From: an uncultured Gemmataceae bacterium
GTDB taxonomy: Bacteria > Planctomycetota > Planctomycetia > Gemmatales > Gemmataceae
Assembly: GCA_963750165.1 (NCBI GenBank)
Contig: CAVVPN010000003.1
Coordinates: 1,632,001-1,696,000 of the forward strand
Length of the DNA stretch: 64,000 nucleotides
Direction: 5' to 3'
Shown here: one piece after another, positions 9,843-54,400 of the stretch
Layout of the letters: each line of letters begins with the position of its first letter
Numbering within the stretch: the stretch's first letter is position 1
Made by a program: the position numbers and the translations under genes
The notes under the pieces: generated by a model
Databases searched by the model: none
What the model saw: only the letters and a program-made list of their open reading frames with translations
What the model was told of the DNA's origin: nothing

Positions 9843-11114
9843 ATGCCCCCGATGCGACGCCTGGCCGAAACCACCGTACTGACGCTCTGCGGCCTGCTGC
9901 TGCTGCACGCCTTCGTCATCACGCTCTGCCAGGTTCCCGGCGGCAGCATGGCCCCAACGCTGCACGGCCGGCACCGCGTTTGCACCTGTCCACGCTGCGG
10001 TCTGCGCGTCACCGTCGGCCACGGCCGCGGCCGCAGTTACGACCACGCCGCCTGTCCGAACTGCGACTTCCGCCCACTGCCGCTCGACGGTGCCGATCAG
10101 CCGGGCGACCAGCTGTGGGTTTTGCAGCCGGCTTTTTTGTGGTGGCCGCCGGCGCGCTGGGAAATTATCGTGTTCCGCTGGCTCGGCGAGTTGTTCATCA
10201 AGCGCGTGGTCGGCCTGCCGGGCGAAACGGTGGCGGTCCACGGCGGCGACGTGTACGTCAATGGCGAACTGGTGCGCAAGTCGCTGGCGGAGGCGCGGGC
10301 GCTGCGCGTACTGGTGTTCGACGGCGATTGCATGCCGCGGCCGCAGACCTGGGCAGCGCGCTGGCGCACGGAGCCGGGCTACACTGGCAAACACCCGCTA
10401 ACCGGTACGGAACTGCACCTCGGCGGCGAACGGGATGGAAAGTGGCAGACGTTCACTTATGAGCAAGTTGCGCTCGACGATGGAAAAGCTCAACCCCTGG
10501 CCGACGAATACGCTTATAACGGCGGCGAACCCACACCCATCACCTTCGTCCACGACTTCCTGGTAGAATGCGAGGTGGAAGTGCTGGCCCCAACTGGAGC
10601 GCTGCTCGTGGGGCTGACGGATGGGCAGGATACGGTGATCGCGGAGGTCGCCATCAGCGGCGCGGACCAACCGAGCCGGTTGCGGGTGACCGGCGCGGCG
10701 ACATCGGCCCACGAACTCACCGGGGCGGGGCTGCTGCAACCCGGGCGGTCACACCGGCTGGAATTCGCGTTCGTGGACCGCCGGGCGATGCTGGCCATCG
10801 ACGGCCGTGAACCGTTCGCGGCGCTGGACCTGCCACCGGCCACGCATCGCGCCCCGGTGACGCGGCCGCTGCTCCTGGGCGTCAAGGACGGCCGCGTCGT
10901 GGTGCGGCATCTGCGGCTGTACCGCGACCTACACTACACCGACACGGGCCGCAACGCCGTGCGCGGGCAGGTTGTCCGGCTGGGGCCGGACCAATATTTT
11001 GTCCTGGGGGACAACAGCCCACTCTCCGAGGACAGCCGGTTCTGGCCCGGCAATGGGACGGTTTCGTCCGCCCAGCTGGTTGGCCGACCGTTGGGGCTGC
11101 CAGGCGGTCGCTGA
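9843..11114 (+). CDS. lepB: Signal peptidase I (S26) with CxxC Zn-ribbon insert, intact single chain
   Basis: GGSMAPTL (Ser), CPRC/CPNC, FIKRVVGLPGE (Lys), YFVLGDNSPLSEDSRFW. Confidence 0.85.
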   Translation: MPPMRRLAETTVLTLCGLLLLHAFVITLCQVPGGSMAPTLHGRHRVCTCPRCGLRVTVGHGRGRSYDHAACPNCDFRPLPLDGADQPGDQLWVLQPAFLWWPPARWEIIVFRWLGELFIKRVVGLPGETVAVHGGDVYVNGELVRKSLAEARALRVLVFDGDCMPRPQTWAARWRTEPGYTGKHPLTGTELHLGGERDGKWQTFTYEQVALDDGKAQPLADEYAYNGGEPTPITFVHDFLVECEVEVLAPTGALLVGLTDGQDTVIAEVAISGADQPSRLRVTGAATSAHELTGAGLLQPGRSHRLEFAFVDRRAMLAIDGREPFAALDLPPATHRAPVTRPLLLGVKDGRVVVRHLRLYRDLHYTDTGRNAVRGQVVRLGPDQYFVLGDNSPLSEDSRFWPGNGTVSSAQLVGRPLGLPGGR

Positions 11115-11144: not shown

Positions 11145-11620
11145 ATGACCGAGGACCTGGGCAAGAACGTGAACGACAATGGCGCGCCGCTGCGCGAACG
11201 GGTGGCCGCCGTGCCCGTCCCCAGCGACAAGCTGACCAGTCCCCCCCGCCGCTGTCCGGCCGCCGGGCGCTGGCCACCCCCGAGCCGGGCAAGTCGCCGC
11301 AGCCCCCCGAGCCCAAGGACGGCACCCGTGAGGTCATCGACACCATCGTCATTGTGGTGGTGCTGGTGCTGTTGCTGAAGGGGTTCCTGGCCGAGGCGTT
11401 CGTCATCCCGACCGGCTCCATGGCGACAACGTTGCTCGGCTACCACAAGGTGGTGACCTGCCCGGAGTGCGGCCACCAGTTTTCGGTGAATTTCAGCAAG
11501 GAGGCCGACGCCGCCGAGGAGAACCCGCAGCCCATCATTGGCTGTACGTGCGAGAACTGCCGGCTGCACATCGAATTCCCCCAACCCGGGCCGCAGCAAC
11601 GCCGACCCCCTGGGCCCTGA
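11145..11620 (+). CDS. Signal peptidase I N-terminal subunit: TM, catalytic Ser box, Zn ribbon (probable 1-bp loss in the C-run at 11241-11247)
   Basis: REVIDTIVIVVVLVLLLKGFLAEAFVIPTGSMATTL, CPEC...CENC, Pro-rich tail, TGA at 11618-11620. Confidence 0.8.
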
Positions 11621-11674
11621 CCCGCCTGCCCCGCGTCCGGCCCCGGCCACCCGCACAACTCAAGGACCCCTGTC

Positions 11675-13189
11675 ATGCGACGATACCTGCTCTGCCTGCT
11701 GCTCGTGACGTTGTGCGGCCTCGCCGGCTGCGGCGGCCCCTGGAGCAGCGGCGACCGCGTCCTGGTCGCCAAGTTCCTCTACGACAGCGCCGCCATGCCG
11801 CCACAGCGTTACGACGTGGTGGTCTTCAAGTATCCGCGCACGCCCGTCGAGAAGGGTACTCCCAAGAACTACATCAAGCGACTGCTCGGCCTGCCCGGCG
11901 AGATCATTGCCATCTTCTTCGGCCGGCTGTATCGCTACGCCCCGGAAAAGGTGCCCGTCGATTATTCCCGGGTCGATCCCAGGGATCTGTGGAAGAACGA
12001 GAACCTGATGGACACGGAGCCGCTGAAGTTCTCGAACCTGGACGACTACCCGCCCGAGCAACGGGCCGTCCTGGAGAAGCGCCGGCAGGAGGGCAAGACC
12101 TTCATCGAGGACTCCTGGAAGGAGGGCAAGTTCACCATCCTGCGCAAGCCACTCGACACCCTGATGGCGCTGCGCCGCGTCGTGTACGACAACGACAAGC
12201 CGGCGAAGGACCTGGAAGGCGTTCTGCCGCCGCGCTGGCAGCCCTGGGACAAGACGGTCGTCTGGAAGGCCAGCGCTGACCACGGCTTTCAGGCCGACGG
12301 CTCCGGCAACGTCGAGCAGTGGCTGCGCTATCAGCACATCCTGCGGCCCGGAGACTGGCCGAAGCGGTCGAGCCCCATGTACGCCGCGGAAGTCGAGGGG
12401 ATCAAGCAGCGTAAACAGGATCCGCAACTAATCACCGACTTCATGGGCTATAACACCTACGAGACGGCAGGCCCTCAGCATCTGCGCTCCCAGCACTGGG
12501 TCGGCGACCTGATGCTGGAGTGCCAGCTGACCGTCGAGGAGCCGCAGGGCGAGGTCTGGCTGGAGCTGTCGCGGGGTGTGGACCGCTTCCAGGCCGTGTT
12601 CGATCTGGCCAACGGCCGGTGTACGCTCTACCGTCTCGTGGCCAGGGACGCCGGCGGCTCCCTGCGGAAGGAGAAGATGGCCGCGGCGGACACGCGCGTC
12701 AATGCGCGCGGCAAGTACCAGCTGCGCTTCGCCAACTTCGATGACCGGCTGACGCTCTGGGTGGACGGCGACCTGCCGTTCGGCGATGGCCAGGAGTACG
12801 CGGCGCCGCCGGAGCACGGCCCCGACGCGCGCTCGGCCGAGGTCAACAACGACCTGCACCCGGCGAGCATCGCCAGCAAGGCCGCCAAGGTGCAGGTCCA
12901 CCACCTCAAGTTGTGGCGCGACACGTATTACACGAAGGTGCCCTCGGACGCGGACGCCGTTCCGACCGAAGCGGGCGCGGACGGTTGGTCCAACCCAAAC
13001 AGGTGGGGGCCGATCCGCAACATCACCTTCCGCGGCATGTACGTCCATCCGGGCCATTACCTGTGCCTGGGCGACAACAGCCCGGAGAGTTCCGACAGCC
13101 GCGACTGGGGCCTGGTGCCGGAACGGCTGCTGCTCGGGCGGGCGCTGATGGTGTACTTCCCGCTGGAGCGTATGGGGCGGATCAAGTAA
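11675..13189 (+). CDS. Signal peptidase I C-terminal subunit with lipoprotein signal peptide (catalytic Lys half)
   Basis: MRRYLLCLLLVTLCGLAGC, then GDRVLVAK, YDVVVFKYP, NYIKRLLGLPGE, LGDNSPESSDSRDWG; no GSM Ser box. Confidence 0.85.
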   Translation: MRRYLLCLLLVTLCGLAGCGGPWSSGDRVLVAKFLYDSAAMPPQRYDVVVFKYPRTPVEKGTPKNYIKRLLGLPGEIIAIFFGRLYRYAPEKVPVDYSRVDPRDLWKNENLMDTEPLKFSNLDDYPPEQRAVLEKRRQEGKTFIEDSWKEGKFTILRKPLDTLMALRRVVYDNDKPAKDLEGVLPPRWQPWDKTVVWKASADHGFQADGSGNVEQWLRYQHILRPGDWPKRSSPMYAAEVEGIKQRKQDPQLITDFMGYNTYETAGPQHLRSQHWVGDLMLECQLTVEEPQGEVWLELSRGVDRFQAVFDLANGRCTLYRLVARDAGGSLRKEKMAAADTRVNARGKYQLRFANFDDRLTLWVDGDLPFGDGQEYAAPPEHGPDARSAEVNNDLHPASIASKAAKVQVHHLKLWRDTYYTKVPSDADAVPTEAGADGWSNPNRWGPIRNITFRGMYVHPGHYLCLGDNSPESSDSRDWGLVPERLLLGRALMVYFPLERMGRIK

Positions 13190-13249: not shown

Positions 13250-13633
13250 ATGTTGAGCTGCGACACCACCATCCGCGTGCGCTACGCGGAAACCGACCGC
13301 ATGGGGCTGCTGCACCACGCGAACTACCTGGTCTACTTCGAGCAGGGCCGCACGGAATTATTGCGCACGCGCGGCTTGACGTACAAGGATCTGGAGGACC
13401 AGGGCTTTCTGCTGGTGCTGACACGCCTGCAGGTGCGCTACCGCAGTCCGGCGTTTTACGACGACTTGCTGACCCTGCGGACAACGGTCGTGCGGACAAC
13501 GCTGGTAAAGATCGAACACAAGTACGAGTTGTACCGCGGCGAGACGCTGGTGGCGGAGGCGGAGACGACGCTCGGCTGCGTTGATCGCCAGGGGCACGTG
13601 CAGGCGCTACCGGAATTCTTGCGTCAGGAATAG
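13250..13633 (+). CDS. YbgC/FadM-family acyl-CoA thioesterase
   Basis: IRVRYAETDRMGLLHHANYLVYFEQGR hot-dog fold motif. Confidence 0.9.
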   Translation: MLSCDTTIRVRYAETDRMGLLHHANYLVYFEQGRTELLRTRGLTYKDLEDQGFLLVLTRLQVRYRSPAFYDDLLTLRTTVVRTTLVKIEHKYELYRGETLVAEAETTLGCVDRQGHVQALPEFLRQE

Positions 13634-13735
13634 TCAATAGTCATTAGTCATTAGTCATTAGTCATTAGTAACCCGGGTCTCCGCCAAGGGCAGGAATTTG
13701 GATTACTAATGACTAATGACTAATGACTAATGACT
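13631..13735. repeat. Inverted heptamer arrays (TAGTCAT)n ... (ATGACTA)n
   Basis: About five units on the left and four on the right around a unique spacer. Confidence 0.9.
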
Positions 13736-13753
13736 CCTCCGAAGGAGGCTGCT

Positions 13754-14281
13754 GTGCGGCGAATGGTGATTCGGCTGGTGCTGCCGCTGATCCTGTGTGC
13801 CCTACCGCTGCTGGTCGCGGCCCTGGTGGCGACCGCCACGCCCGCCGCCGCACGCACCTTCTATCTGCACCGCGTCGCCGACTCGCCCATTGACTGGATC
13901 ATTCTGGGCCTGGGGCTGAGCCTGTTCACGATGCAGCTGATGCTCACCTGGCGGGCGCTGCAGTGGCGCGGCGGCGGCTTCGACGAGCGGCCCGACCACT
14001 GGCTGAACAACCTCGCCCAGGCCGCCGAGTGGTTTCCCATGCTTGGCCTGATCGGCACGGTGACCGGCATCCTGCAAACTTTCAGCACCATTGCCGAAGA
14101 CCCATCGGTAACGACCCGAACCATCATCGGCCTGTACGCCCCGGCCATCACCGCGACTGGCAGCGGCCTGTTCATGGCCCTGATTAATATCCTGCCGACG
14201 TGGGTGGTGCTGCTGGGACGTGACCTGATCCTGTCGCTGGGCGGCAGCGGCCCGTCGGCCTCGGGGGGCCCGCGGTCATGA
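13754..14281 (+). CDS. MotA/TolQ/ExbB proton-channel family protein (short, divergent)
   Basis: FPMLGLIGTVTGILQTF...APAITATGSGL; AAGGAGG RBS before GTG 13754. Confidence 0.8.
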   Translation: MRRMVIRLVLPLILCALPLLVAALVATATPAAARTFYLHRVADSPIDWIILGLGLSLFTMQLMLTWRALQWRGGGFDERPDHWLNNLAQAAEWFPMLGLIGTVTGILQTFSTIAEDPSVTTRTIIGLYAPAITATGSGLFMALINILPTWVVLLGRDLILSLGGSGPSASGGPRS

Positions 14282-14781
14282 TCCACATGCCCCGGCGCAG
14301 CGTCACGCGCTTCTTCATCCCGCTCATCGACGTGATGATCCTGCTGTTCTGCATCTTCCTGCTGCTGCCGGTCTTCAAGGAAGCGCCCGACAACCCCGAT
14401 GCGGACGCCAAGAAAAAGTCCCTCAACCAGGAGGAGGAGTTGAAGAAACTCCGGGCCGAACTGGCTGAACTGCGCAAGGGGCAGCGCGGCGTGGCGGTGC
14501 GGGTGCTGGAGGTGGACCCGCGCACCGGCGCCCTGTTCTATTACCAAAAAGGGGAGCGGCAGGATCTGGACTCGGCGGCGAAGGTCGCGGCGCTGGTCGC
14601 CCGGCACGAGCGCGAGGCGAAGGACCAGGCCGCAACGGGTTCGCCCGCGCCGGAACTGCGCTACATCATCCTCTACCCGCCGCCGGCGCTGGAGTCCGTC
14701 CAGCCGACCGGCAACCGGTTGAAGGATTACGAGCACTGGTTCGGCAAAACGCACTACGTCCTGGATAAGCGCGGCGGCTGA
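14278..14781 (+). CDS. ExbD/TolR-like protein
   Basis: FFIPLIDVMILLFCIFLL TM with conserved Asp; ATGA overlap with upstream gene. Confidence 0.75.
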   Translation: MIHMPRRSVTRFFIPLIDVMILLFCIFLLLPVFKEAPDNPDADAKKKSLNQEEELKKLRAELAELRKGQRGVAVRVLEVDPRTGALFYYQKGERQDLDSAAKVAALVARHEREAKDQAATGSPAPELRYIILYPPPALESVQPTGNRLKDYEHWFGKTHYVLDKRGG

Positions 14782-14867
14782 TCGGCCCGGCGTTGGCAGC
14801 GCCGCCTGCAGTGGCACACCCAGCCATCCTCTGCCTACTTCGAGAGGCGTGCCAGAGGAGTGAGATC

Positions 14868-15575
14868 GTGACCGAGTCGTTTGCCCCGAGCGTGCCGTTG
14901 GCGGCCCTGGACTTCAGCCTGCTGCCCGAAGTGCTGCAGCTCGCCATCCGCTTTTTCCTGGCCGTGGTGGCCGCCGTCGTCGCCTGGTTCGTGATGGGCC
15001 CGGTGGCGCGGCTGCTGTATCGCCTGGCGTTCCAGCGGCCCATGCCCAACACGCTGGCGGGCTGGTCGCAGCTGGTCGGGGCCGTGATCGTGGGCGTGCT
15101 GGTGTTCCTGTTCCTGCCGCCGTTTGGCGGAGGCGGCGGGGGCGGCGGCGGCCTGTTCGGCGGCGGCGGTGGCAACGGCACCGCGAAAAAAAATGGCAAG
15201 GGTGAGGGCAGCGACCAGACCGGCAAGGACGCCAGGGATGGCGGCACGAAAAAGGAGCGGCCCGACGTGCTTGAAGTCGAGATGGCCCCCGATGGGCTGT
15301 ATGAGTATGGCAGCGGCCGCTACTACCTGCTGTACACGCCGGAGACGCCGCGCAGTTTCGCCTCGGCGCAGGAGTACCGCAAACACCTGAAAACGCTGGC
15401 GGAGGTGAAGGACTACCTGGAGGCGAACGCCAGGCGGTACAAGGAGATGGACATCCTGATTTATGGCAACAGTGCCGAGCCGGGCAGTCCTATCGTCCTT
15501 GCGTTGACAAATCTGGCCGATCAATTCCGCCTGCCGTATTTGAAGCGGCCCCAGGGCAAGCGCAAGACCTTGTAG
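14868..15575 (+). CDS. Membrane protein with two TM helices, Gly-rich linker and soluble domain
   Basis: Hydrophobic segments followed by a poly-G/K linker; GAGGAG RBS before GTG 14868. Confidence 0.7.
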   Translation: MTESFAPSVPLAALDFSLLPEVLQLAIRFFLAVVAAVVAWFVMGPVARLLYRLAFQRPMPNTLAGWSQLVGAVIVGVLVFLFLPPFGGGGGGGGGLFGGGGGNGTAKKNGKGEGSDQTGKDARDGGTKKERPDVLEVEMAPDGLYEYGSGRYYLLYTPETPRSFASAQEYRKHLKTLAEVKDYLEANARRYKEMDILIYGNSAEPGSPIVLALTNLADQFRLPYLKRPQGKRKTL

Positions 15576-15615
15576 CGGTCGGCCCGCGCCCGCGGTCAGC
15601 AAGGGAGCGACCATC

Positions 15616-17305
15616 ATGGACCAGGCGAGTCCGAGCACGCAGACGGCCCCGGCGGTGTCGAGCCGGTCGCTGCGCGTCGTCCTGTTCGGCATGCCCAAGG
15701 CCGGCAAGTCATCGTTGCTGGGCGCCCTTGCTCAGGCGGCACAGACGCAGGAGCACATCTTCAACGGCCGTATCCTGGACAAATCGCAGCGGCTCCTGGA
15801 ACTGCAGCGCCGCCTCTACGAGGGCCGACCGCGCGAGACCCTGGAGGAGGTCGCGGCCTATGACATCGCGCTGCAGCCCCTGGGCGGCAAGCCCGGCGAA
15901 CCCACGGCCGGGACGGTGAACGCCACGCTGATCGACTGCGACGGCCGCGTCGCCAACGAGTTGCTGGCCAGGGATGATCTGAACGGCACCGGCCGGGCGC
16001 TGGCGCGGTCCGTGCTGAATGCGGACACGCTGGTGCTGGTCGTGGACGCCTCCACCGATGCGGGGACGCTGAAACAGACCTTCGGCCAGTTCGCGCAGTT
16101 CCTGCGGGCGCTGGAGATGAGCCGTGGCGAGCGCACCGAGGTCGGCGGCCTGCCGGTGTACCTGGTGCTGACCAAGTGCGACCTGCTGGCGCAAAAGACG
16201 GACACGACCGCCGCCTGGATGGATCGCATCGAGGAGCGCAAGCGTGAGGTGAGCCAGCGCTTCAAGGACTTCCTGGCGGTAAACGAAGGCAGCGACGGGG
16301 TGCCGTTCGGCAAGGTGGAGTTGAACGTGTGGGCGACGGCGGTGAAGCGGCCGGCGCTGGCGGACGCGCCGGCGCGGCCGGTGGAGCCGTATGGCGTCGC
16401 GGAGTTGTTCCGCCAGTGCCTGGAGTCGGCGGCGGCCTACCGGGAGCGGCGGACGCTGGCGAGCCGGCGGTTGCTGTTCACGCTCGGGGTCGCGGGCGGC
16501 GTCGTGGTGGCGCTGGTGCTGCTGATGCTGGTGCTGGTCCTGAGCCAGCCGTCGAAGGAAGCCACCGCGCTGAACGACGAGGTGCGTCGCTACATCGCCG
16601 CCAACGACCGGCCGGCGGAGCGCTTCCAAAACATCGACGACAAGCTGGAGCAGCTGAAGCACTTCAAGGACAGCCCGGATTTCGCGCGGTTGCCGGAGGA
16701 CTATCGCGCGGGTCGCTGCCGACCTGAAGGCGTTGACCGAGTACAAGCGCTTTACCGAACAGGTGCGCGAGGTCGGCAAGACGTTCAGCTTCGACCTGAA
16801 CCGCGTGCCGGACGACGCCGAGGAGAATCTGAAGAAGATTCAAATGGACTTGAAGGCGCTCAAGGAGCAGCAGGTGAAGTTGTCGGTGTCGCCGGAGTAT
16901 CGGGCGGCCTGGTCCTCGTCGGAGACGGTGCGGCAGCTGGACCAGTGGCTCGCGGACCTGCACATCCTGGACGCGGAGAAGGAGCAGGTTGTCCAGGAAT
17001 ATAATCAGCTGCTGCAGGAGGGCGCGGAGGCGCTGCGGCAGGGCCGGGCACGGTTCCAGAACGAGAAGGTCATCAAGGTGGAGGATCTGGATCGGGTGGA
17101 GTCGCTGAAGAACCGGTCGAAAAGGCTGGCGGAGCGGCGCACCGCGCGGGCGGACGAGTTGCTGCCTGGCGCGGCCGAGGTCAAGAACGCCCTGCTGTTC
17201 CGGTTGCGCAGCGTCCAGGCGGCGCAGCGGCGGTGGGAAGTCAGCGACGTGAAGCGGGACCTGGAAGATTACCTGAACTACATTAAATCCAGGAGCAGCG
17301 GATGA
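15616..17305 (+). CDS. Membrane-anchored P-loop GTPase with C-terminal coiled coil (frameshift near 16705-16730)
   Basis: G1 GMPKAGKS, G3 DCDG, G4 TKCD, TM LLFTLGVAGGVVVALVLLMLVLVL; helical continuation in ORF 16733-17305. Confidence 0.75.
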
Positions 17306-17798: not shown

Positions 17799-20700
17799 TT
17801 ATCGCGACCCCGGCCCGGACATGCCCATCAGGCCGCCGCTGGTGCCGCTGCCCATGCCGCCCATCGTGCCCATGCGGCGGCTGGCCGGCAGCAGGTTCGG
17901 ATACACCTGGAACAGGAAGCTGAACGTGCTCAGCGCCGAACTGTAGCTGAAGCCGATGTCCACCTCCACGTCCGAGCCGACGTGCGCAAAGAACGCCGAC
18001 ACGGTCTGCACCTTGTTGCCCACGTCGTCAGCCATCGTGAACGTCAGGGCGTACTTGCTGCTGAACGGGTAGGTGATGCTGGCGACGAACGTCTTGCTGT
18101 TGAGCGGGTCAATTTGCCGGTACATCAGCAAGACGTTCGTCTTGTCCGGCCGGTTGATCGTGCCGCCGAAGCTGAAGATGTGCGCCCCGTTCTGGAACGG
18201 TTCAAAAAAGCCCGAGCTGAACAGCGCCGTGCGGTCGCCGACGTTCCAGTTCCAGTCGTACTCCAGGAAGCCGACGTCGCTGCCGAAGTTCTGCGACGTG
18301 TTGGGAAAGAACGACGCCGACAGGTCCAGCGTCATCCAATCGACGATGTGCTGCTGCCCCAGGTAGCCGCGCTTCGTCTGCCAGCGCTGGCGGACATCGA
18401 ACTGGAAGGTGTTGATGCTGCCCAGCGTGTCGATGCGGTCCATGACCAGGCGGCGGACGGCCATCGACTGCGGATCGAACTGCGCCTGGGCCGGCAGCAA
18501 GGTGCCGACGCCGGGGTAGTAAATTGGCTCGAACGGCCGGATGTCGCGCATCGCCTGGTCGGTGGCGTCGTCGTGGATGCGGTCGAGCTGCGGCAGCAGG
18601 GTGTACGGTGTGTCGCTGTGGGCGATGTAGTAGTTGCCGCCCACTACTATCTTGTGAAAGATACCGTTGAGGTTGAGCAGCTCGCTGCACACGTCCGGGT
18701 AGAGCTTCGAGAAGGGGATGCTGCCGCGCATGCCGCCGCCGCCGTAGAAGCGGCCACGGCCCTCGCCCGCCAAGTCCTGCGTGTAGTACGTCAGGTCGAG
18801 CGTGGCGTACGGCACCAGTTTGAACGCTCCCATCTGGAACGGCAGACTGATTTCCTGGCCCCAGTCGAAGCGGCCGGTGGCGTCGTTCTGGTCGGTCGGC
18901 AGCAGCACGCCGGTCTGGTCCGATGTGCCGATCAGGTGGTAGTAGCCGGCGCTGCCGCGCGAGTTATACGTGAACAGGTCGAGGAATTTCTGGCCGATCA
19001 GGTAGCCCTGCACCTCGGGCAGCCGCTGCGCCTCGGTCACCCATTCGCGGAGGCGCGGCTCCGCCTTGATGTCCCACGCCATGATGCCCTGCTGCTGCTT
19101 GGCATAGAAGTACGTCTCCTGGTTCAGACCGCGCTGGAACTCCATCTGAAAGAACTGCTCAAGGAAGTTGCGGTCGGACAGCAGCGACACCTGGGACTGC
19201 ACCGAGAGGCCCATCGGCAGCTCCTGCATGTTGAGCTGACCGAGCAGGCGGCCGCGCCACTCGGGGTGCGGCGTATTCCAGAAATCGAGCTGCGGCACGA
19301 AGCTGGTGTACTGGCCCTCACCGCGGCCGCCGCCGAGCTGGTCGTTGCCGGTGTCGTGGATGCCGTACAGTTTGAAGTCACCGTTGGTCTTGTTGGGGAT
19401 GCCGAACATGTCCGTGATGCTGTACGCGAAGTCGGTGCCCAGGGCCGGGCCGCGCGCCGTCATCACGTCGGCGTAGAGCCGCCAGCGTGTGCCCGGCACG
19501 CGCTGCATCCCGAGCAACTCGTACAGGTCCCAGGTGGTGAACAGCTGGAAGCCGAAAATCTTGTTGTAGTTGAACGAGAAGTTGTCGAGTGGGCCGAGCG
19601 GATCGTTGACGTTGGCGGCGAGGTACGGCAGATAGAAGATCGGTACGCCGCCGATGTACAGGAGCATGTTGCGGCCCTGGAAAATCCGCTGCACTTCCTG
19701 TTCTTGCTGGCCGGTCTTGGGGTCGGTGAACGGGATGCCGAAGATGCTGTGCGCGGCACCGTGACGGTCTCGACCTGCGATGTGGTGAAGGTGACCTTGA
19801 TGCCGGGGTCCGAGGGCAGCTTGCTGGCGTTGAGGTCAGTCTCCTTGAGCTTGTACAGTTCGGCGTTGAGCTGGTCGATCTCCGGCGAGTTGATGTGGAC
19901 CGGATCGGCGACGCCCACTTCGCGGATTTCCATTTTGGCATTGAGGGCGATGGAGACGTTGCGGGCGGTGTTGTAATACACCTCGTCAGCGCGGATGAGG
20001 CGCGCCTCCTTGGGGCTCTGGTTGCGCAACTCGACGTTGCCGGACAGGTAGAACTCCTCGGGCGGCTGGTTGTTCTGATTGCCGCCGGTCTGGCGGAGGC
20101 CGTTGAGCGTGTCCTGGAAGTTGCCGCGTGTCCAGAAGACGAGGCGGTCGGCCTCGATGTCCACGAAGGTGCGGCCGTCGCCGGCCTGCAGGATGACGCC
20201 GCCGGTGACGACGACGATGGTTTCGCCGTTGGGCTGCGGGAAGTCGCGGGCCTTGAGTTCGATCAGGGACGAGCGCGGCACGATGACGAGCGAGCGCCGC
20301 GGTGCCGGGCCCATGTCTTCCAGCGGCACGACCTTTGGCTGCGGCCCAACCTGGGGCTGCTGCGATGGCTGGGACGGATTCGCCGGCACGCTCGGCGGCG
20401 GCACCTTGGGGGAAGTGTCGGGCGGCGTCGGCGGTTGCTGCAAGGGCTGGAATTGCTGGACCGGCGTGCCCTGCACCTGACCGGCAGGTGGCGTCGGTGC
20501 CGGGACCTGGGCGGCGGTTTGCTGCACCTGGCCGGGGGCGACGGCGCCTCCGGCGGATACGACGCCGCCAGTCGCTGGCCGCGCGCGCTCGGCGACGGTG
20601 CGCTGGTATAGCGGGTTCTGTGTCTGCGACTGGCTCACAATTGTGCCGACGTAAACATGTCCTTTCACCTGGGCGCTGGTAATCAGGGTGAACAGGGCCC

Positions 20701-21094
20701 GGGGCGTGGCCTGGGTGCCGATGACACTGTTGGAGCCGTCGAGCAGCTGGGTGAGGTTTTCGCCGTAGACCTCCACTTGATACTTGCCGGTCTTGCGCTG
20801 GCTCTCGAGGTTCACCCAGACGACGGCGTTTTCCATGCGGCCCTGGAGCACGCCCTGCTCGATGTAGGCGTCGCCGCTGAGGAGGAAGACCTGATAGTTT
20901 TGTTCGGTCCAGCTGGCGATGGTGCGGGCGGACAGGGTGATAGTCTGGTTGGCGGCGGGGTCGGTGCGATTCCAGGTGAGGCGGGCCGACTGGGCGAACA
21001 GGGACAGCGGGGCGCAGAGCAGCAGGAGGGCGGCGCAGGCGGCGCGGGCACCGCTGCCGGACGGCAGTCGAGGTATGCTGGATCGCGTGGTCAC
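17799..21094 (-). CDS. LptD/OstA-like LPS-assembly outer-membrane protein, planctomycete type (frameshift near 19740)
   Basis: Signal peptide, OstA-like IEADRLVFW/YLSGNV/ADEVYY, GGVPIFYLPY, SDRNFLEQFF, QRWQTKRG, aromatic beta-barrel C-terminus. Confidence 0.75.
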
Positions 21095-38896: not shown

Positions 38897-40252
38897 ATGG
38901 CCGTCCTGACCGAGTCGCGTCCGCTGGTTGTCGCACTGCCCTGGCGCTGGGTGCATGTCGCCGTCGCGGCGCTGGCGATGGTGGCGACGCTGCCCGGCCG
39001 CACCCACGGCCTCGGCCTCATCACCGAACCGTTGCTGGCGGACTTCCAGCTGGGCCGCCTCGCTTACGCCGCCATCAACTTCTGGGCGACGCTCCTCGGC
39101 GCCGTCTTCTGCGTGCCCTGGGGCTGGCTGACCGACCGCCTCGGCGTCCGCGCCGTGCTCAGCGCCACGCTGCTCGGTCTTGGCGCCGTTGTCGTCGCCA
39201 TGAGTCTGCTGCCGGGCGCGGCGGAAACGACGGGGCCATCGGTGGCGGTGGCGTCGCTGCTGTTCGCGCTCGTACTGCTGACGCGCGGCCTGGGCCAGAG
39301 CGCCCTGTCGGTGGTCAGCCTGGCACTGATGGGCCGCGCCGCCGGCCGGCACTCCGGTCTGACCGTCGGCGTTTATTCGCTGCTGACCGGCCTGGGCTTC
39401 ATGGCCGCGTATGTGGCGATCCGCCAGGTGCTGTTAAATTGGGATGTCTCCTGGCGGTTACTCTGGGAGAGCATTGGCTGGGTGCTCATCGGCGTCGCCG
39501 TGCCGGTCTGGTTGGTGGTGCGGCCCACCGCCCTCGCGGTGTCGCCCACCGACCGGATCGCGGCCGACGCCGCCGGCTACACCCTCGGCGAAGCGCTGGC
39601 CACGCCCGCCTTCTGGGTCTTCGGCCTGGCCACGTCGTTTTACGGCCTGATCGCCGCAGGCATCTCGCTGTTCAACCAGAGCATCCTTGCGGAGCGCGGC
39701 TTCGACCGCGAACTGTTTCTGACCATCACCGCCCTGGCGCCGCTGGTCGGCCTGGCCAGCAACCTGGCGACCGGCGGCCTGGCGATGCGCTGGTCGTACG
39801 GCCGACTGCTGATGATCGCCATGCTGCTGCTCGCCCTGGCCCTGGCGGTCTTCCCGCTGGTGCAGACGGTGGCGCAGGTGTACGCTTACGCGGTGACGCT
39901 GGGCATCGCCGGCGGCATGGTGACGACCCTCTTCTTCGGCGTCTGGAGCCGCTACTACGGCCAGGCCCACCTCGGCAAGATCCAGGGCGCCGCCCAGATG
40001 TTGACCGTGTTCGCCTCGGCGCTCGGCCCGGTACTGCTGGCCGCCAGCCAGCACTGGACGGACTCGTACACGCCGTTGTTCCAGGGTGCCGCCGCGGTCG
40101 CCGGCTTGCTGGCGCTGGCCGCCTGGCTGACGCCGTCGCCCCGCGCCCCGATTTTCCTTCGCCTCACCCCCGACGAGGTTCCCCATGACGCCGGCCACCC
40201 TGACCCCCTTGCCACCGCCGTCCGCGGCGCGGAAGAGCGACTACGACCGTGA
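38897..40252 (+). CDS. MFS transporter
   Basis: About 12 TMs; GWLTDRLGVR motif A; YYGQAHLGKIQG. Confidence 0.9.
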   Translation: MAVLTESRPLVVALPWRWVHVAVAALAMVATLPGRTHGLGLITEPLLADFQLGRLAYAAINFWATLLGAVFCVPWGWLTDRLGVRAVLSATLLGLGAVVVAMSLLPGAAETTGPSVAVASLLFALVLLTRGLGQSALSVVSLALMGRAAGRHSGLTVGVYSLLTGLGFMAAYVAIRQVLLNWDVSWRLLWESIGWVLIGVAVPVWLVVRPTALAVSPTDRIAADAAGYTLGEALATPAFWVFGLATSFYGLIAAGISLFNQSILAERGFDRELFLTITALAPLVGLASNLATGGLAMRWSYGRLLMIAMLLLALALAVFPLVQTVAQVYAYAVTLGIAGGMVTTLFFGVWSRYYGQAHLGKIQGAAQMLTVFASALGPVLLAASQHWTDSYTPLFQGAAAVAGLLALAAWLTPSPRAPIFLRLTPDEVPHDAGHPDPLATAVRGAEERLRP

Positions 40253-40982
40253 CGGCTTCGTGATCGTCCGCGGTCTGTTCGGCGCTGACGACATCGCCGC
40301 GGCCCTGGCCGAGGCGGAGCGTCTGCTGGTCGAACGCCGCGATTTGATCTCGACCAAAAATATCCGCTGTCGCTGGCAGCCGAACGTCGTCACCGGCGCC
40401 GCCTGCGAGTTCGAGACCTTCGACCCCATCGTGGACCTCGTGCCAGTATGCCGGCGGCTGGCCCTGGACGCGCGGCTGCTGGCCGTGCTGGCGGAACTGT
40501 ACGGCGAGCCCGCGTGCCTGTTCAAGGACAAGCTCATTTACAAGCCGCCGGGCGTGAAGGGTTACGGTCTGCACCAGGACTGGATCGCCTGGCCGGGCTT
40601 TCCACGCAGCTTCCTGACGGTGCTCATGCCCTTCGACGCGGCCGGCGTGGACAACGGCTGCACGGAGGTGTTTCCCGGCTACCACACGCACGGCAGTCTG
40701 TCGGCCGAGGACGGCCAGTATCACGAGTTGCCGGCGGCCACCGTGGACGAGGCGAAGGGCGTGCCGCTGGAGCTGGAGCCAGGCGACGTGGCGATTTTCG
40801 GCGGCTTCACGCCGCACCGCTCCGCTCCGAATCGCTCGCCGCGCTGGCGACGGCAGCTGTATCTTAGCTATAACAAACTGTCGGACGGCGGCGAACAGCG
40901 GGCGAAGCACTATGATGAATTTCACCGCTGGCTGCGCGTGAAGTACGCGGAGTATAACAAGACCGACGTCTACTTCGAGTGA
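40185..40982 (+). CDS. Phytanoyl-CoA dioxygenase (PhyH) family Fe(II)/2OG dioxygenase
   Basis: YDRDGF, LHQD, NGC, PGDVAIF, TPHRSAPN..R. Confidence 0.9.
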   Translation: MTPATLTPLPPPSAARKSDYDRDGFVIVRGLFGADDIAAALAEAERLLVERRDLISTKNIRCRWQPNVVTGAACEFETFDPIVDLVPVCRRLALDARLLAVLAELYGEPACLFKDKLIYKPPGVKGYGLHQDWIAWPGFPRSFLTVLMPFDAAGVDNGCTEVFPGYHTHGSLSAEDGQYHELPAATVDEAKGVPLELEPGDVAIFGGFTPHRSAPNRSPRWRRQLYLSYNKLSDGGEQRAKHYDEFHRWLRVKYAEYNKTDVYFE

Positions 40983-48400: not shown

Positions 48401-51400
48401 TCAACCGCCCAGCCCGATCACCCGCCGCTCGTCCCGTTCGTCGCGTGCCAGCGTCGCCAGGCCGGCGGCCAGCAGCGCGCCCGCCATCAGGTCGGCAACA
48501 GTCGCGTCCTCCTCGGTCAGCCAGTTTGCCAGGGCCTGTCCGTGCAGGTCGATGGCGGTTCGGGCGGCGGACGCTGGGGCCTCCTGGGGTGTCGGGATCA
48601 GTTCCGACGGCCCCAGGACACTCGGGGAGCCGTCCGCCGCACGGCCCACGGCCGGGACGAACCGCAGACGCGACGGCACGGGCTGGAGGGTGACCGCCGG
48701 GCCCGATTCCCACGGGAGAGCCGCCGCGGACTCGGAGCCGTTCGGCAACGGCACGCCGGCCAGCGCCGCCGGGGTGTAGGTGCCTTCCCACAACGCGGGC
48801 ATCGGAGCGGGGGGCGGCCCCAGCGGCGCCGGAGCGGACGCGGCCACGCTGTTGCCGTTCGACACCGCCGGCAGGGTGAACACCTGCGGGATGAACGCCT
48901 GCGGGATGGCCGTCTGTGGGGTAACCGTCTGCGGGGCGACCGTTGGCGGCGTGTCCACCGGGAGCGTGCCGCCGTCATCCGCCACCACGAATTCCAGCGT
49001 CATGGGATCCCAGCTGCCGCTGGACTCCGACGGTAGCGGCGCCGAGGACAGGCCGAAGACACTGCGCAGGTAGGCGTCCGAACTGTACGCCCCGCCACCC
49101 TCGCGCGGTAGCACCGCGGTGGAGAAGACGCCAGGGCCGTTGATCTGCGTGCCGAACCCGGCGGACCCCATCAGGTCCGTCGTGCCGTTCAACGCGGTCA
49201 CGTCCCACAGGCCGAAGGTGTGGCCGGCTTCGTGACTGATGGCATTGGCAATCTGCTGCGCATACTGGTCGGCGGTCTCGCCCAGGAAGCTTTCGGCCTG
49301 GCCGACCGCCGCCGCGAACACGAAGCCGATGTCCGTGTACTGGTTGCCCGGATCGACCGGCGCCCCGCCCGCGGTCAGGCTCACCGAGCCCGTGTTGAAG
49401 ACCGGGTTGGTGCCCACCAGCCAGGAACCATCGCCACCCACGTAAATCACCGTGTCGCCCGTGTGGAAGAGTGGGTCGTCCTGCCAATCGTCGTCGCGCA
49501 ACACCTGCACGGGGTACGCCGCAAACTCCGCCCGCACCTCGGTCACGATCTGCTCGATCTGCGTCTCGCGATCAACCCCGCCGAAGGCGACGTAGGCCGG
49601 GTGGGTCACCCCGGTCGCTGCCGGCACCTGCTCCACAGCCGCCGGCGCCGGCAGCGTGCCGCCGGCGAAGTCCAGGAAAATATGCGTCTGTGGCGGGGCG
49701 GGAGCAGGCGGCAGCACGCCCAGAACCTGGCTCTCGAACGTGTAGCGGACGTTGTTCGGGTTGTACAGCGAGAAGCTCCGGGCGGTGGTGGTCTCTCCCG
49801 GGTTCAGGATGCCATCGCCACCGGCCAGGGCGGTCAGGTCGAAGTACGGCGCGCCGCTCGGCAGGGTGCCGGTCGGCTGCAGGACGCTCACGGTTGAGGG
49901 TGACAGGTTGAGCCAGGACAGCCAGATCGGCCCCTGAATCGGCGTGGAGGTGTTGTTCGTCACCGTCCCGTAGAACGAAGTGTTGTGCGTGCTGCGGTTG
50001 TACTGCGTGCCGTAATAGGTGATGGTCAGCATGGACGTGACGTCCACCTGGCCGATGATGGGCAGGACATCAATGACGAAACTGCGCGTCAGCGACAGGC
50101 CGCCCTGGTCGGTGACGCGGACGTCGAGGACCAGCGTGGCCGCGTTCGCGTACAGCACCGACATGCCGAGGTTCAACTCCAGGACATTGTTCACGACCGT
50201 GAAGCGCGCGTCGTTGACCACCGAGTAAGTGAGGGTGTCGCCCACGTCCGGGTCGGTGCCCGTCAGGGTGCCGACCACAGCCCCGGCGTCCTGTTCGGGC
50301 ACGGTGTTATTGCTCAGGGTCAGGTCCGAGGGCGGGTGGTTGACGTGCAGGACCGTGATGGTGAAGTTGTCTGTCACGGATAGGGCGCCCTGGTCGGTGG
50401 CGGTGATGGCCAGCGGCACCGTCGGCTCGGTCTCGTGACTGAGGCTGACACCGCTGGCGAGTTCGAGGACGCTGCCGACCACCTGGAAGCGCGGATCGGA
50501 AACCGTGAAGGTGTGGGTGTCGCCCACGTCGGGGTCGGTCACGGTCAGGTTACCAATGACGGCGCCCGGCGCGTCCTCCAGCACCGTCGTGTTGTCCAGT
50601 GTCACATTCGTCGGCGCGTGGTTGACGTGCAGGACCGTGATGGTGAAGTTGTCTGTCACGGACAGGCCGCCCTGGTCGGTGGCGGTGATGGCCAGCGGCA
50701 CCGTTGGCTCGGTCTCGTGACTGAGGCTGACACCGCTGGCGAGTTCGAGAACGTTGCCGACCACCTGGAAGCGCGGGTCGGAAACCGTGAAGGTGTGGGT
50801 GTCGCCCACGTCGGGGTCAGTCACGGTCAGGTTGCCGATGACCGCGCCGGATGGTCCTCCAGCACCGTCGTGTTGTCCAGCGTCACATTCGTGGGCGCGT
50901 GGTTGATGTGCAGGACCGTGATGATGAAGTTGCGCGTCACGGACAGGCCGCCGGCGTCACTGGCGGTGATGGTCAGCGGCACCGTTGGCTCGGTCTCGTG
51001 ACTGAGGCTGACGCCGCTGGCCAACTCAAGGACGTTGCCGACCACCTGGAAGCGCGGATCGGAGACCGTGAAGGTTGGCGTGTAGCCCATGTCGGGGTTG
51101 ATGACGGTCAGGTTGCCGATGACGGCGCCCGGATGGTCCTCCAGCACCGTCGCGTTGTCCAGTGTCAGGTCGCTCTGTCCCAGACTGACCACGGTGATAG
51201 TCACCATGCCCGGCTGGCTGAGCAGCTGACCGTCGCTGGCCTGGTAGGTGAAGCTGTCCGTACCGCTGAAGCCCGGGTTGGGCGTGTACAGGAACGAGCC
51301 GTCGGCGTTCAGGGTGACGGTGCCGTGCGCCGGCTGAGTGGCGATCTGGGCGGTGAGGGGGTCGTCCTCGGTGTCGGTGTCGTTGGCCAGCACGCCGTTG

Positions 51401-54400
51401 GCGGCGCTCACCTGGAGCGGTTGGTCCTGGCCCGTCGTGTAGCTGTCGGGGTTGGCGAAGGGGGCGTGGTCACCGTCGGGGCCGAGCAGCTGGACGTTGG
51501 CAATGCTCACCGAACTGGCGACGGCGTCGAAGCCGAGCAGTTCCAGGTCCAGCGTCGCCTGGCTGCCGATGGCCAGGCCGGCCAGGCTCACGGTCACGAC
51601 CAGCGGCGTGCCCGGGGTGGCCGTCTGGCCGGAGGTGGCCAGGCCGTCCACGGTGACCTGTGGGCCGAAGAAGGTTTGGCCGGAGGTCTGCACGTTGAAG
51701 AAGGCGTCAGTCTGGGTCAGTCCGGTGGCGGCGCCGACCAGGGTCGTGTTGGTGGTCGGGTTGAGCAGCGCCGCCTCGAAGGCGTCGGGCGGAGCCAGCG
51801 GGCCGTTCGAGCTGAAGTTGGTGGTGACGGTGAAGCGCAGGGCGGTGGCGCCTTCGGGAACGCTGAACGTCTGGGTGAGGCTGGTGAAGACGTTCGGGTT
51901 TTCGCTGAGCACGGCCTGGGCGTTGCTGTTGACCGCGACCGTTCCCTGCGTGGTCCAGCCGAACTGCGAATCGGCGGGGTTGGCGTCGGAGAAATCGCCG
52001 TTGACCAGGTCGTCGCCGGACCAACCGCCTTGCCGCGCGGGTGCGGTGCCGATGCCGAGGAGGCTCGGGACCAGGTTGCTGGTGACGCTGGCGTCCTGGC
52101 GCACGGTGTTGAGGATCTGCACGTCCAGCGGCGAGGGTAAACGGCGGACGCCCGGCTCCAGGGTGAGGCTCATCAGGTCATCGGGATACAGGGACGGGTC
52201 GAGGTCGTCCGCCTGTGGGGCTGCCAGGTTGGCGGAGTAGCCCTTGCCGACGAACATCATGGAGCCGGCGACAATGCCGACGTGGGCGGCGTAGCCGGGA
52301 ATCTGCGGGTCGATGCCGAGCACGTGGCCGACCTCGTGCAGCAGGACGGTGTCCAGGTCGTACTTGCCCGCGGCGGGCGAGCCGGGGAGTGCCTGGAAGG
52401 CGTCGGGGCTGAGCTGCCGGCTAAACGCGGAGTTGTCCAGCGGCGTGGGATCGACGTACCAGCCAACGCCCGCGGCGTCCGGGCTCAGGGTGATGGTGGC
52501 GGCCGTGGGCAGGCCGTCCGGGCCGAGCCCGTCAATGCGAGTCTCGCCCAGTTCGCCTGCAGGCAGTTCCGCAAACGTAACGTTGAACTGAGCGTTGGCG
52601 AGGCCGCCGCTTGGTATGTTCCAGGCCGCCAGGGCTGCGTTCAGGCTGAACGTCTGGAGGCTGTCCAACGATGGATCTTCACCCTGCAAACCGATTGCTG
52701 TGCCCAATTGAGGCGCCGGAGGCGGGACAGGGTACGCGGTGATCAAATTCCCTCGGGCGTCGGTGTAAATCTGGATCCAACTGGTTTGCTGCCCGCCATG
52801 CTTCAAGGAAGTCAATCCGACAATTTGTTGGGTGTCCACGAGGCGGCTGTAAGACGGATTGAGTGCTCCTCCTCCCTGCTGGACCGCCCGCACAGGGGAC
52901 TGAACCACCCCTCTGCTGGTGAGAACTTGTTCGAGTTGACCGACCGAGATGGTGAAGGTCGAGTCATGTTGCGTCGGGGCGGGCCGGAAGTGATTCTGCA
53001 CAAGGTGCACCAGGCCAGCCGTGGTGGATCTGCCATTCCCCGCCCCCTTGGGCGAAAAGCGGGTGGCGAAGTTGGGGACGTTGATGCGGTTTCGTACCAC
53101 GCCAGGAATCGGGGGTTGACTTCCACTCCCGCTTCCCCCGCCGGGATTGCCACCACCGGTCGAGCCACCACCGCCGCTACCGCCTGTGCCTGGTGGACCC
53201 GATGTCGAGTTGCCGTTGGCGGCGTTGGCCCGGCGAGAGGCCGCAATCCCAGCGGCACCGAGCGGGGCAAACGTTTCAACCATGCCACCGATGCCGGCGA
53301 CGCCCATGCGAATTTGCGGATCATCCGTGAACAACCCGGAAACCTGATATCCGAGACTTGAGCCGATCGTTTTATTGACATCGACGGCCGCGTTCACTCC
53401 GTTCTCCAATTGCTGCTGCGCGTAATTCTCTTGCGTGGTGGTCTGGCCATTGCCGCCCATGACCTGAAGACTACCCTGGTTCTGCAGCGGCGTCATGTGA
53501 CAGTTGGGGTCATCGCGCTTACACGAGGTGACCACGTCAATACCGGCCTCAATCCGCCAGTATTGCGCCTGCTGTTCCTGGATTTTCCTCTGCTGGGCCG
53601 CGAGGGCGTCCTGGACCCTGGGGTCGTAGTACCAGAAGGAACTGCTGAAATCGACCTCCTTCAGCAGCTTTTGCAAGGTTTCAGGGGGCAGTTGTTTCAA
53701 CTGATTGACTGGGTCGAACGGCGAAGCGCTCGCGCCGACATCACTCACGGTAGCCCCCCACTCGCCGGGCCGGTAGGACTTGTCGTGCACGGTCAGGCCG
53801 TCGGTCCCGGTGTCCGTCTTCGACTCCTTGACGACGCCGCTCTTCCGCGGCGGTCCGTGGACAGTCACCTCCTCCGGCACATCGTCCGCCGGAGTGTTCG
53901 TGTTAGTGGCTGGCGGCGTTGCCGGGGTTCCCAGGATGCAGCCGCCGGGGCCGCAGATGGCACTCGACGGGGATACCGTCGGCAAGTTGGGCGGAGGCGG
54001 GGGCGGGGGGGGCGGCCCTTGCGCCGCGGGCGCCTGCTGCTCTCCCGTCGGGTCGGTGTAACTCAGCGGGTTCGCCGAGACGTACAGGTAGCGGTTGAGG
54101 GTGATCGGGGCAGTCTCCGCCCCGAGGAAATCGTCCTGGGTGATGAACGACCCGACGGACGGGTCGTAGTACCGCGCCCCGAAATAGTCCAGCCCCGTCC
54201 CCGGGTCGGCGCGTTGGCCGGTGAACTGCACTGGGTTGTTCGACGCGCCGTAGGACGCCAGCACGTTGCCCCAGGGGTCGTACTGGAAGCCCTGGATCAC
54301 GCCTGCGGGGCCGTACAACTCCGAGGTGCTGCCCAGCGCGTCCACGAAGTAAAACTGTTCGACGGGGACCGAGCCGCCGGAGAGCGGGCTCAGCATCGAC

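Follow-up and report, generated by a model that had tools for sequence, protein, structure and literature searches.

Fission of a Signal Peptidase I Gene Between the Catalytic Serine and Lysine in a Clade of Gemmataceae

Signal peptidase of type I (SPase I) is essential, serves as a target of antibiotics, and is known as a one-chain Ser-Lys protease. In the signal peptidase complex of the ER and in mitochondrial Imp1/Imp2, each catalytic subunit has its own nucleophile and base, and the remaining subunits are accessory or full paralogs. The LexA and UmuD proteins of the same Ser-Lys clan cleave intermolecularly, with the substrate in trans and the dyad on one chain. For Escherichia coli LepB, PMC12984324 describes a nucleophile that follows strand beta1 and a base in beta5, locked by cross-sheet ladders, and a tripeptide (Gly272-Asn274) that positions the Ser. 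The same paper presents SipA of Streptococcus pyogenes as a non-catalytic SPase I-like protein (see also PMC4049620). PMC9360617 describes SPase I as essential in E. coli and defines lipoprotein signal peptides by a basic n-region, a short h-region, and a lipobox with Cys at position +1. No description of a split SPase I was found in the accessible parts of the open-access literature.

The analyzed window, a stretch of 64,000 nucleotides from an uncultured Gemmataceae bacterium (contig CAVVPN010000003.1), contains two S26 peptidase loci in tandem on the + strand, and these were the only PF10502 matches obtained by profile search of the 93%-complete genome. The first locus (9843..11114, +) is a single-chain gene, here called P, with a transmembrane (TM) segment, the motifs PGGSM, CxxC/CxxC, FIKR, and GDNSPLSEDSR, and a TIGR02227 score of 83 bits (cut-off 47). 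As the initial annotation had stated, it runs from the Zn-ribbon into the Gly-Asp (GD) motif without a signal segment. The second locus consists of two pieces, chains A and B, both also on the + strand, and is followed by a YbgC/FadM-family thioesterase gene (13250..13633, +; profile match) and then, at 13730-17305, by MotA/ExbB-like and ExbD-like genes, a membrane protein gene, and a GTPase-domain gene with weak matches to Double-GTPase 2 and TssM.

Every feature that had been read from the sequence of chain A was found again, namely the TM segment, the Ser box IPTGSMATTL, the CxxC..CxxC ribbon, and a Pro-rich tail that ends with a TGA codon at 11618..11620, in frame with ORF B. The putative signal-anchor helix (11342..11389) corresponds to helix 7-27 of the model of a fused homolog and is conserved in 30 aligned rows. 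It is followed by strand beta1 and the nucleophile loop (AEAFVIPTGSMATTLLG; 11390..11440), assigned by alignment, where the catalytic Ser codon at 11417-11419 is equivalent to E. coli Ser90, and by the ribbon (11459..11560), recognized by its Cys conservation, which is an insertion relative to E. coli LepB. The initial annotation erred, however, in treating chain A as one open frame from 11145. The ATG at 11145 is out of frame with the Ser frame and its own frame runs into a TGA inside the TM region, so that 11145-11620 is not a single open frame, and the Ser frame itself offers no ATG, GTG, or TTG upstream of the TM segment. A codon model located a frame switch between 11235 and 11250, in the region of a C7 run (11241..11247) that is probably the site of an assembly indel, and scored the start frame in 11145..11240 at +14.7 vs -36.3 and -18.4 for the other frames. 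Together with the N-tail length of homologs, this score identifies 11145..11240 as the predicted cytoplasmic N-tail with the probable true start. The joined chain of approximately 158 amino acids is in line with its homologs (median of 86 amino acids before PTGSM), and the frame switch most likely reflects a 1-nt deletion in the assembly. The codon model flagged frame switches in 12 of the 45 modelled genes of the window, among others at 15616-17305 (+), 17799-21094 (-), 38897-40982 (+), and 48401-52668 (-); at least one of the 12 is a stop/start overlap and not an error. Other broken-gene findings in this genome may therefore be indel artefacts. Some chain A homologs (L002:542-1492, P0243, P0249, P0260, and P0263) have two to four predicted hydrophobic segments before the Ser box, the usual anchor included.

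Chain B was likewise found as annotated. Its gene (11675..13189; 504 amino acids; TIGR02227 79.7 bits, cut-off 47) starts with an ATG located 54 nt past the chain A stop and in the same frame, behind the ribosome-binding-like motif AAGGA (11662..11666), and opens with a lipoprotein signal (MRRYLLCLLLVTLCGLAG-C; 11675..11731) that is predicted from motif and hydropathy, with the lipobox LAG-C and Cys19 at 11729-11731. The N-terminal catalytic part (11750..11900), with GDRVLV, RYDVVVF, and NYIKR, aligns to E. coli LepB from Gly98 onward and includes Lys68 (11876-11878), which aligns to Lys145. Further downstream follow an inserted beta-sandwich domain (12491..12928, limits approximate), assigned by its fold match in the fused homolog, and box E (GDNSPESSDSR; 13070..13102), which by alignment provides the omega tripeptide and the Ser278 equivalent. 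Only the naming of GDRVLV as box C had to be revised: its counterpart in the alignment is E. coli GDFILV, immediately behind the Ser box, and it is RYDVVVFKYP that aligns to RGDIVVFKYP, the motif which we take to be what is called box C. The cut in the protein thus lies just before E. coli Gly98 (numbered by counting from Ser90 in the aligned E. coli chain), with beta1 and the Ser loop on chain A and everything from Gly98 on in chain B. The PF10502 profile is divided between the two without overlap, as chain A matches positions 2-38/39 (21.3 bits alone, below the cut-off of 22.9) and chain B positions 39-168 (77.1 bits). Within chain B, the segment ...GEIIAIFFGRL (11828-11930) contains a Phe-Phe specific to the split clade where fused forms vary and has lost a conserved Thr; judged by sequence, it is a candidate for a new interface or membrane contact.

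A search of 252 genomes of the family yielded matches in 234, and 115 loci, representing the best scores and not all matches, were examined. Thirty-two loci had a lipoprotein signal before the GD motif (30 with both halves present, 2 cut by a contig end), 77 were scored as fused (including 7 from a sister family and 2 paralogs), 3 were frame-broken without a signal (one of them sharing its locus with a fused paralog), and 4 were cut off. The split layout hence occurs in 31 further genomes, or 32 in all, which represent 16 genus codes including that of this genome, and the stop after the ribbon is present in all 30 split loci that have both halves. G019, G052, and G137, which have frame breaks but no signal peptide, were not accepted as splits. 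G465, where the contig ends, was not counted as an independent split, and G062, G022, and G214 were placed in neither class. Most family matches are 41-53% identical to chain B, and most of the named records nearest to it carry the label uncultured Gemmataceae or Planctomycetota. At the protein level, 117 of the best 120 matches of chain B have a lipobox and no Ser box. The three exceptions are P0182, with a longer hydrophobic anchor and no Cys; P0214, a single chain with extra N-terminal hydrophobic segments; and P0228, which was rejected as a true fusion since it still has the lipobox and lacks the second CxxC, where the reading frame appears to have shifted. All of the best 120 short matches of chain A, from a search that covered proteins of 51-195 amino acids, end 6-24 amino acids after the ribbon. 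The split and the lipobox, initially described from one locus, are thus conserved in orthologs. Outside the split clade, the other family members examined and a sample of the phylum are single-chain: in that sample, comprising 220 genomes, 105 matched the chain A profile, with the best matches located in frames of at least 432 amino acids in all but one case (a contig end). From these observations, the split is real and extends across the clade, a core enzyme having been divided through its catalytic dyad. Two records stood out in the searches: L133, labelled Alcaligenaceae, has a 68%-identical start of chain B and is probably a mislabel or a mis-binned contig, and L021 (G017:C320) shows two inverted lepB copies with identical scores on one short contig, possibly an assembly artefact.

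A tree of chain B without its signal, calculated after removal of 13 of 114 rows that were truncated, frame-broken, or paralogous (three true split rows among them), placed all 29 split rows in one clade (FastTree support 0.987). Quick RpoB trees, for which SH-aLRT is the only support measure, served to place the genomes. When the long branch G050 was kept, 23 of 26 split genomes grouped together (SH-aLRT 90) and three stood apart with weak support; when it was dropped, the 26 split genomes and two unclassed ones formed one clade (SH-aLRT 98.4) vs 41 others. The simplest reading of these trees is a single origin of the split, followed by vertical descent. Less in keeping with so tidy a history, one 239-aa single-chain fragment with split-clade signatures (P0253) is nested inside the split clade (support 96, nested 87); it could represent a re-fusion, a chimera, or a sister lineage that stayed fused.

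An AlphaFold2 model of mature chain B alone had confident inserted domains, and nearly all of residues 1-63 and 442-486, which make up the peptidase core, had a pLDDT below 50. The model of a natural fused homolog, in contrast, reached a pLDDT of 89 and a pTM of 0.90 and matched PDB 1B12, and structure comparison related its insert to CBM66/galectin sandwiches; a large CBM66/galectin-like beta-sandwich insert, in this window at 12491-12928, is a feature of the planctomycete LepB. This structural contrast is suggestive only, because the alignment depths of the two models differ (29 for chain B alone vs 69).

Considering all lines of evidence, we regard it as highly probable that chains A and B together form an active two-chain SPase I, the housekeeping LepB type of one Gemmataceae clade, which arose by a single ancestral fission. 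The layout and the trees are observed directly, and the housekeeping role is what we infer from them. Judged from the division of catalytic elements between the two sequences, A and B most likely must assemble to form one active site. The earlier proposal that two chains, each with its own anchor, together make up the active site is supported by the conserved split and lipobox and by the varied junctions, and it is the physical assembly that we infer. The break would have occurred at the end of a Zn-ribbon-like loop already present in the fused ancestor, between the Ser loop and beta2, after which the 3' part would have acquired a ribosome-binding site and a lipoprotein signal of its own. Chain A is predicted to be a signal-anchored inner-membrane protein of N-in/C-out topology whose beta1, Ser loop, and ribbon face the periplasm. 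Chain B would be exported and would then be processed by Lgt, LspA, and Lnt, which lipidate and trim it, so that its lipid-Cys comes to lie at the membrane surface; all three enzymes are encoded in the genome, each above its profile cut-off. Strand beta1 of A could then complete the sheet of B, bringing the Ser of A beside the Lys and box E of B, and the A-B dimer would cut signal peptides by ordinary Ser-Lys chemistry. The two anchors may hold both pieces in one plane, and the lipoprotein signal would provide export and a tether for chain B without need of SPase I itself. The longer hydrophobic anchor of P0182 suggests that tethering, and not the lipid as such, matters for chain B. A basic n-region, a hydrophobic h-region, and Gly-Cys are present in 31 of 31 chain B starts scored, and in none of them does an acidic residue fall within the final 12 positions of the signal. 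Gly occupies position -1 in 118 of 118 B homologs (LAG-C in 48), and the lipid-Cys precedes the GD motif by 4-11 residues in the split genomes. LolA was not found in the genome with PF03548, and LolC/E-like matches stayed below the cut-off. Asp at +2 of chain B occurs in only 4 of the 32 split genomes, so that this residue would not account for a retention of B in the inner membrane in most of them, a point against the two-chain reading.

The E. coli Asp+2 retention signal is absent from the other 28 genomes, an observation that also fits a different explanation, according to which P is the working SPase I, chain B a non-catalytic lipoprotein (for example a scaffold, or a glycan binder acting via its beta-sandwich), and chain A a small membrane Zn-ribbon protein. 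The CBM66/galectin-like sandwich is indeed the best-folded part of the chain B model, and P was strongly matched, in its N-terminal part, in 24 of the 33 split-clade genomes searched, with its catalytic motifs mostly kept. In most clade genomes a P-type Zn-ribbon paralog, 32-47% identical to 9843-11114, lies directly upstream, whereas several lineages lack it at this place. Most split genomes, this one among them, retain an intact P that might carry out the essential function, and necessity is thereby a weaker argument. Against non-catalytic halves, however, stands the conservation of Ser, Lys, and box E over all 16 genus codes: 30 of 30 rows have an unchanged Ser box PTGSM in chain A, matched by PSGSM in the alignment with E. 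coli, the Lys of chain B in the motif (Y/F)IKR is invariant in 29 of 29, and box E is at least 90% conserved in the chain B rows, with GDN..S.DSR present in 119 of the best 120 matches. The two genes also stay adjacent and coupled. Furthermore, searches with PF10502, TIGR02227, and a P profile found no S26 gene besides A and B in the genomes G123 (95% complete), G122 (91%), and G061 (88%), all of them fragmented MAGs, and other genes occupy the place of P there. In G141 only A and B were found as well, with the contig ending just upstream, and G060 contains a further partial S26 match. In G061 the A/B pair directly follows a gene that we presume, from its motifs, to be lepA-like; a lepA-lepB arrangement is known from E. 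coli. Taken together, non-catalytic halves appear improbable. For a subset of the clade, the sole SPase I might even be the two-chain form, with the Lys chain a substrate of the lipoprotein pathway, so that export would hinge on Lgt and LspA and on strand complementation between chains, and A would be a separately tunable nucleophile subunit; this extension is tentative, and we lean against it at present.

How the two halves are produced bears on whether the split has a function of its own. The junction was readable in 30 loci, of which 22 show an NTGA overlap and one TAATG; in the other seven, the two genes are separated by 4 to approximately 117 nt. A GGAG, GAGG, or AGGA motif lies upstream of 24 of 31 chain B starts and largely coincides with the frequent C-terminal GGxP of chain A, and a scan for promoters and terminators returned no promoter-like site and nothing informative. 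The stop/start overlap would lead to approximately 1:1 synthesis of A and B. The initial annotation had raised regulation or subunit swapping as a possible benefit; the coupled overlaps and the ribosome-binding motif point to fixed co-production instead, and a profile search found no spare A-like or B-like gene in this genome. The corresponding alternative is an active A+B dimer whose split is adaptive, with A as a swappable or regulated nucleophile subunit, be it that the ribbon senses metal or redox state, that A is turned over, or that lipoprotein maturation exerts control. The persistence of the split across a broad clade, the chain A homologs with several predicted N-terminal TM segments, and the clade-specific hydrophobic changes in B (AIFFG) and in A would fit such a device. 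These points are opposed by the overlap at 23 of 30 junctions, which implies joint synthesis, by the lack of a second A or B gene in the profile search, by the ribbon, whose four Cys are invariant not only in 30 of 30 split rows but also in 69 of 69 fused rows, and by the possibly re-fused P0253. We give this alternative about as small a chance as non-catalytic halves, and consider a regulatory device less likely than a fission that was neutral at first and was then locked in.

A third explanation retains one chain, made by stop readthrough or frameshifting, so that the enzyme would not be split at all. The TGA in frame with ORF B in this genome, and the common -4 overlap that a -1 shift could bridge elsewhere, are compatible with it. 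However, junction frames, gap lengths, and stop codons differ among the split genomes, and since the junctions vary in frame and length, no single recoded chain is conserved. A slippery-type heptamer occurs at only 1 of 31 junctions, and all 31 chain B starts carry a full signal, which is needless in a linker and would misplace one half. Recoding is thus very unlikely; the layout in 31 other genomes, the overlaps, and the varying frames are explained neither by conserved readthrough nor by read error. Finally, a sequencing or assembly artefact or a decaying pseudogene, which the many apparent frame switches of this assembly, one of them inside chain A, might suggest, can be dismissed as regards the split itself: the layout recurs in 31 other assemblies and in 117 protein clusters, a signal of 18 codons cannot arise through an error, truly frame-broken loci (G019, G052, and G137) lack a signal and look different, and purifying selection acts on both halves, as judged from codon comparisons. 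In seven close pairs, dN/dS was 0.04-0.19 for chain A and 0.06-0.35 for chain B; the higher values of a deep pair (0.46 and 0.72; this genome vs G012) are probably due to synonymous divergence underestimated at high GC.

An active two-chain enzyme derived by fission, the reading preferred here, has several implications. A dyad that is naturally divided between membrane protein and lipoprotein reveals a point at which the fold can be cut, and A/B would offer a ready split-protease design that links type I to type II signal-peptide processing. As there are fused relatives as well as a TM-anchored variant and what may be a re-fusion, the clade is a clean case for the survival of a core gene after fission. 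Annotation can be corrected too, as chain A is often labelled hypothetical or rubredoxin and chain B a complete signal peptidase, and the two-chain claim is testable in E. coli without culturing the host.

Compared with known systems, A/B is closest to the single-chain Zn-ribbon LepB proteins of other Gemmataceae and Planctomycetota, which are its direct orthologs and have the TM segment, the Ser box, the ribbon, and the inserts in common, but run from the ribbon to GD on one chain (77 rows). With E. coli LepB (PF10502, TIGR02227; PDB 1B12, 1T7D, and 9NLO) it shares the alignable Ser box, GD.ILV, the RGDIVVF-like motif, YIKR, and GDN..S.DSR, a membrane anchor before the Ser, and, in one split genome, a lepA-like neighbor. 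It differs from that enzyme by placing Ser and Lys on separate gene products with the cut before Gly98, by the lipoprotein signal of the Lys chain, and by the added CxxC/CxxC and large beta-sandwich inserts. The ER complex and Imp1/Imp2 resemble A/B in that signal peptidase activity resides in a membrane hetero-oligomer, which for A/B is predicted from sequence, yet there the dyad is kept within a subunit. In LexA and UmuD, one chain of the Ser-Lys clan also acts on another, whereas in A/B the dyad itself is split. SipA is likewise an S26 fold unable to cut by itself, but according to PMC12984324 it is an intact chain with Asp at the nucleophile position and no base, whereas A/B keep both residues on two adjacent genes. 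By its sequence, A/B agrees with LepB in every respect save for Ser and Lys on one chain, and since the two residues lie on two genes in 32 genomes, it is classed as a split LepB derivative and not as an ordinary member of the family.
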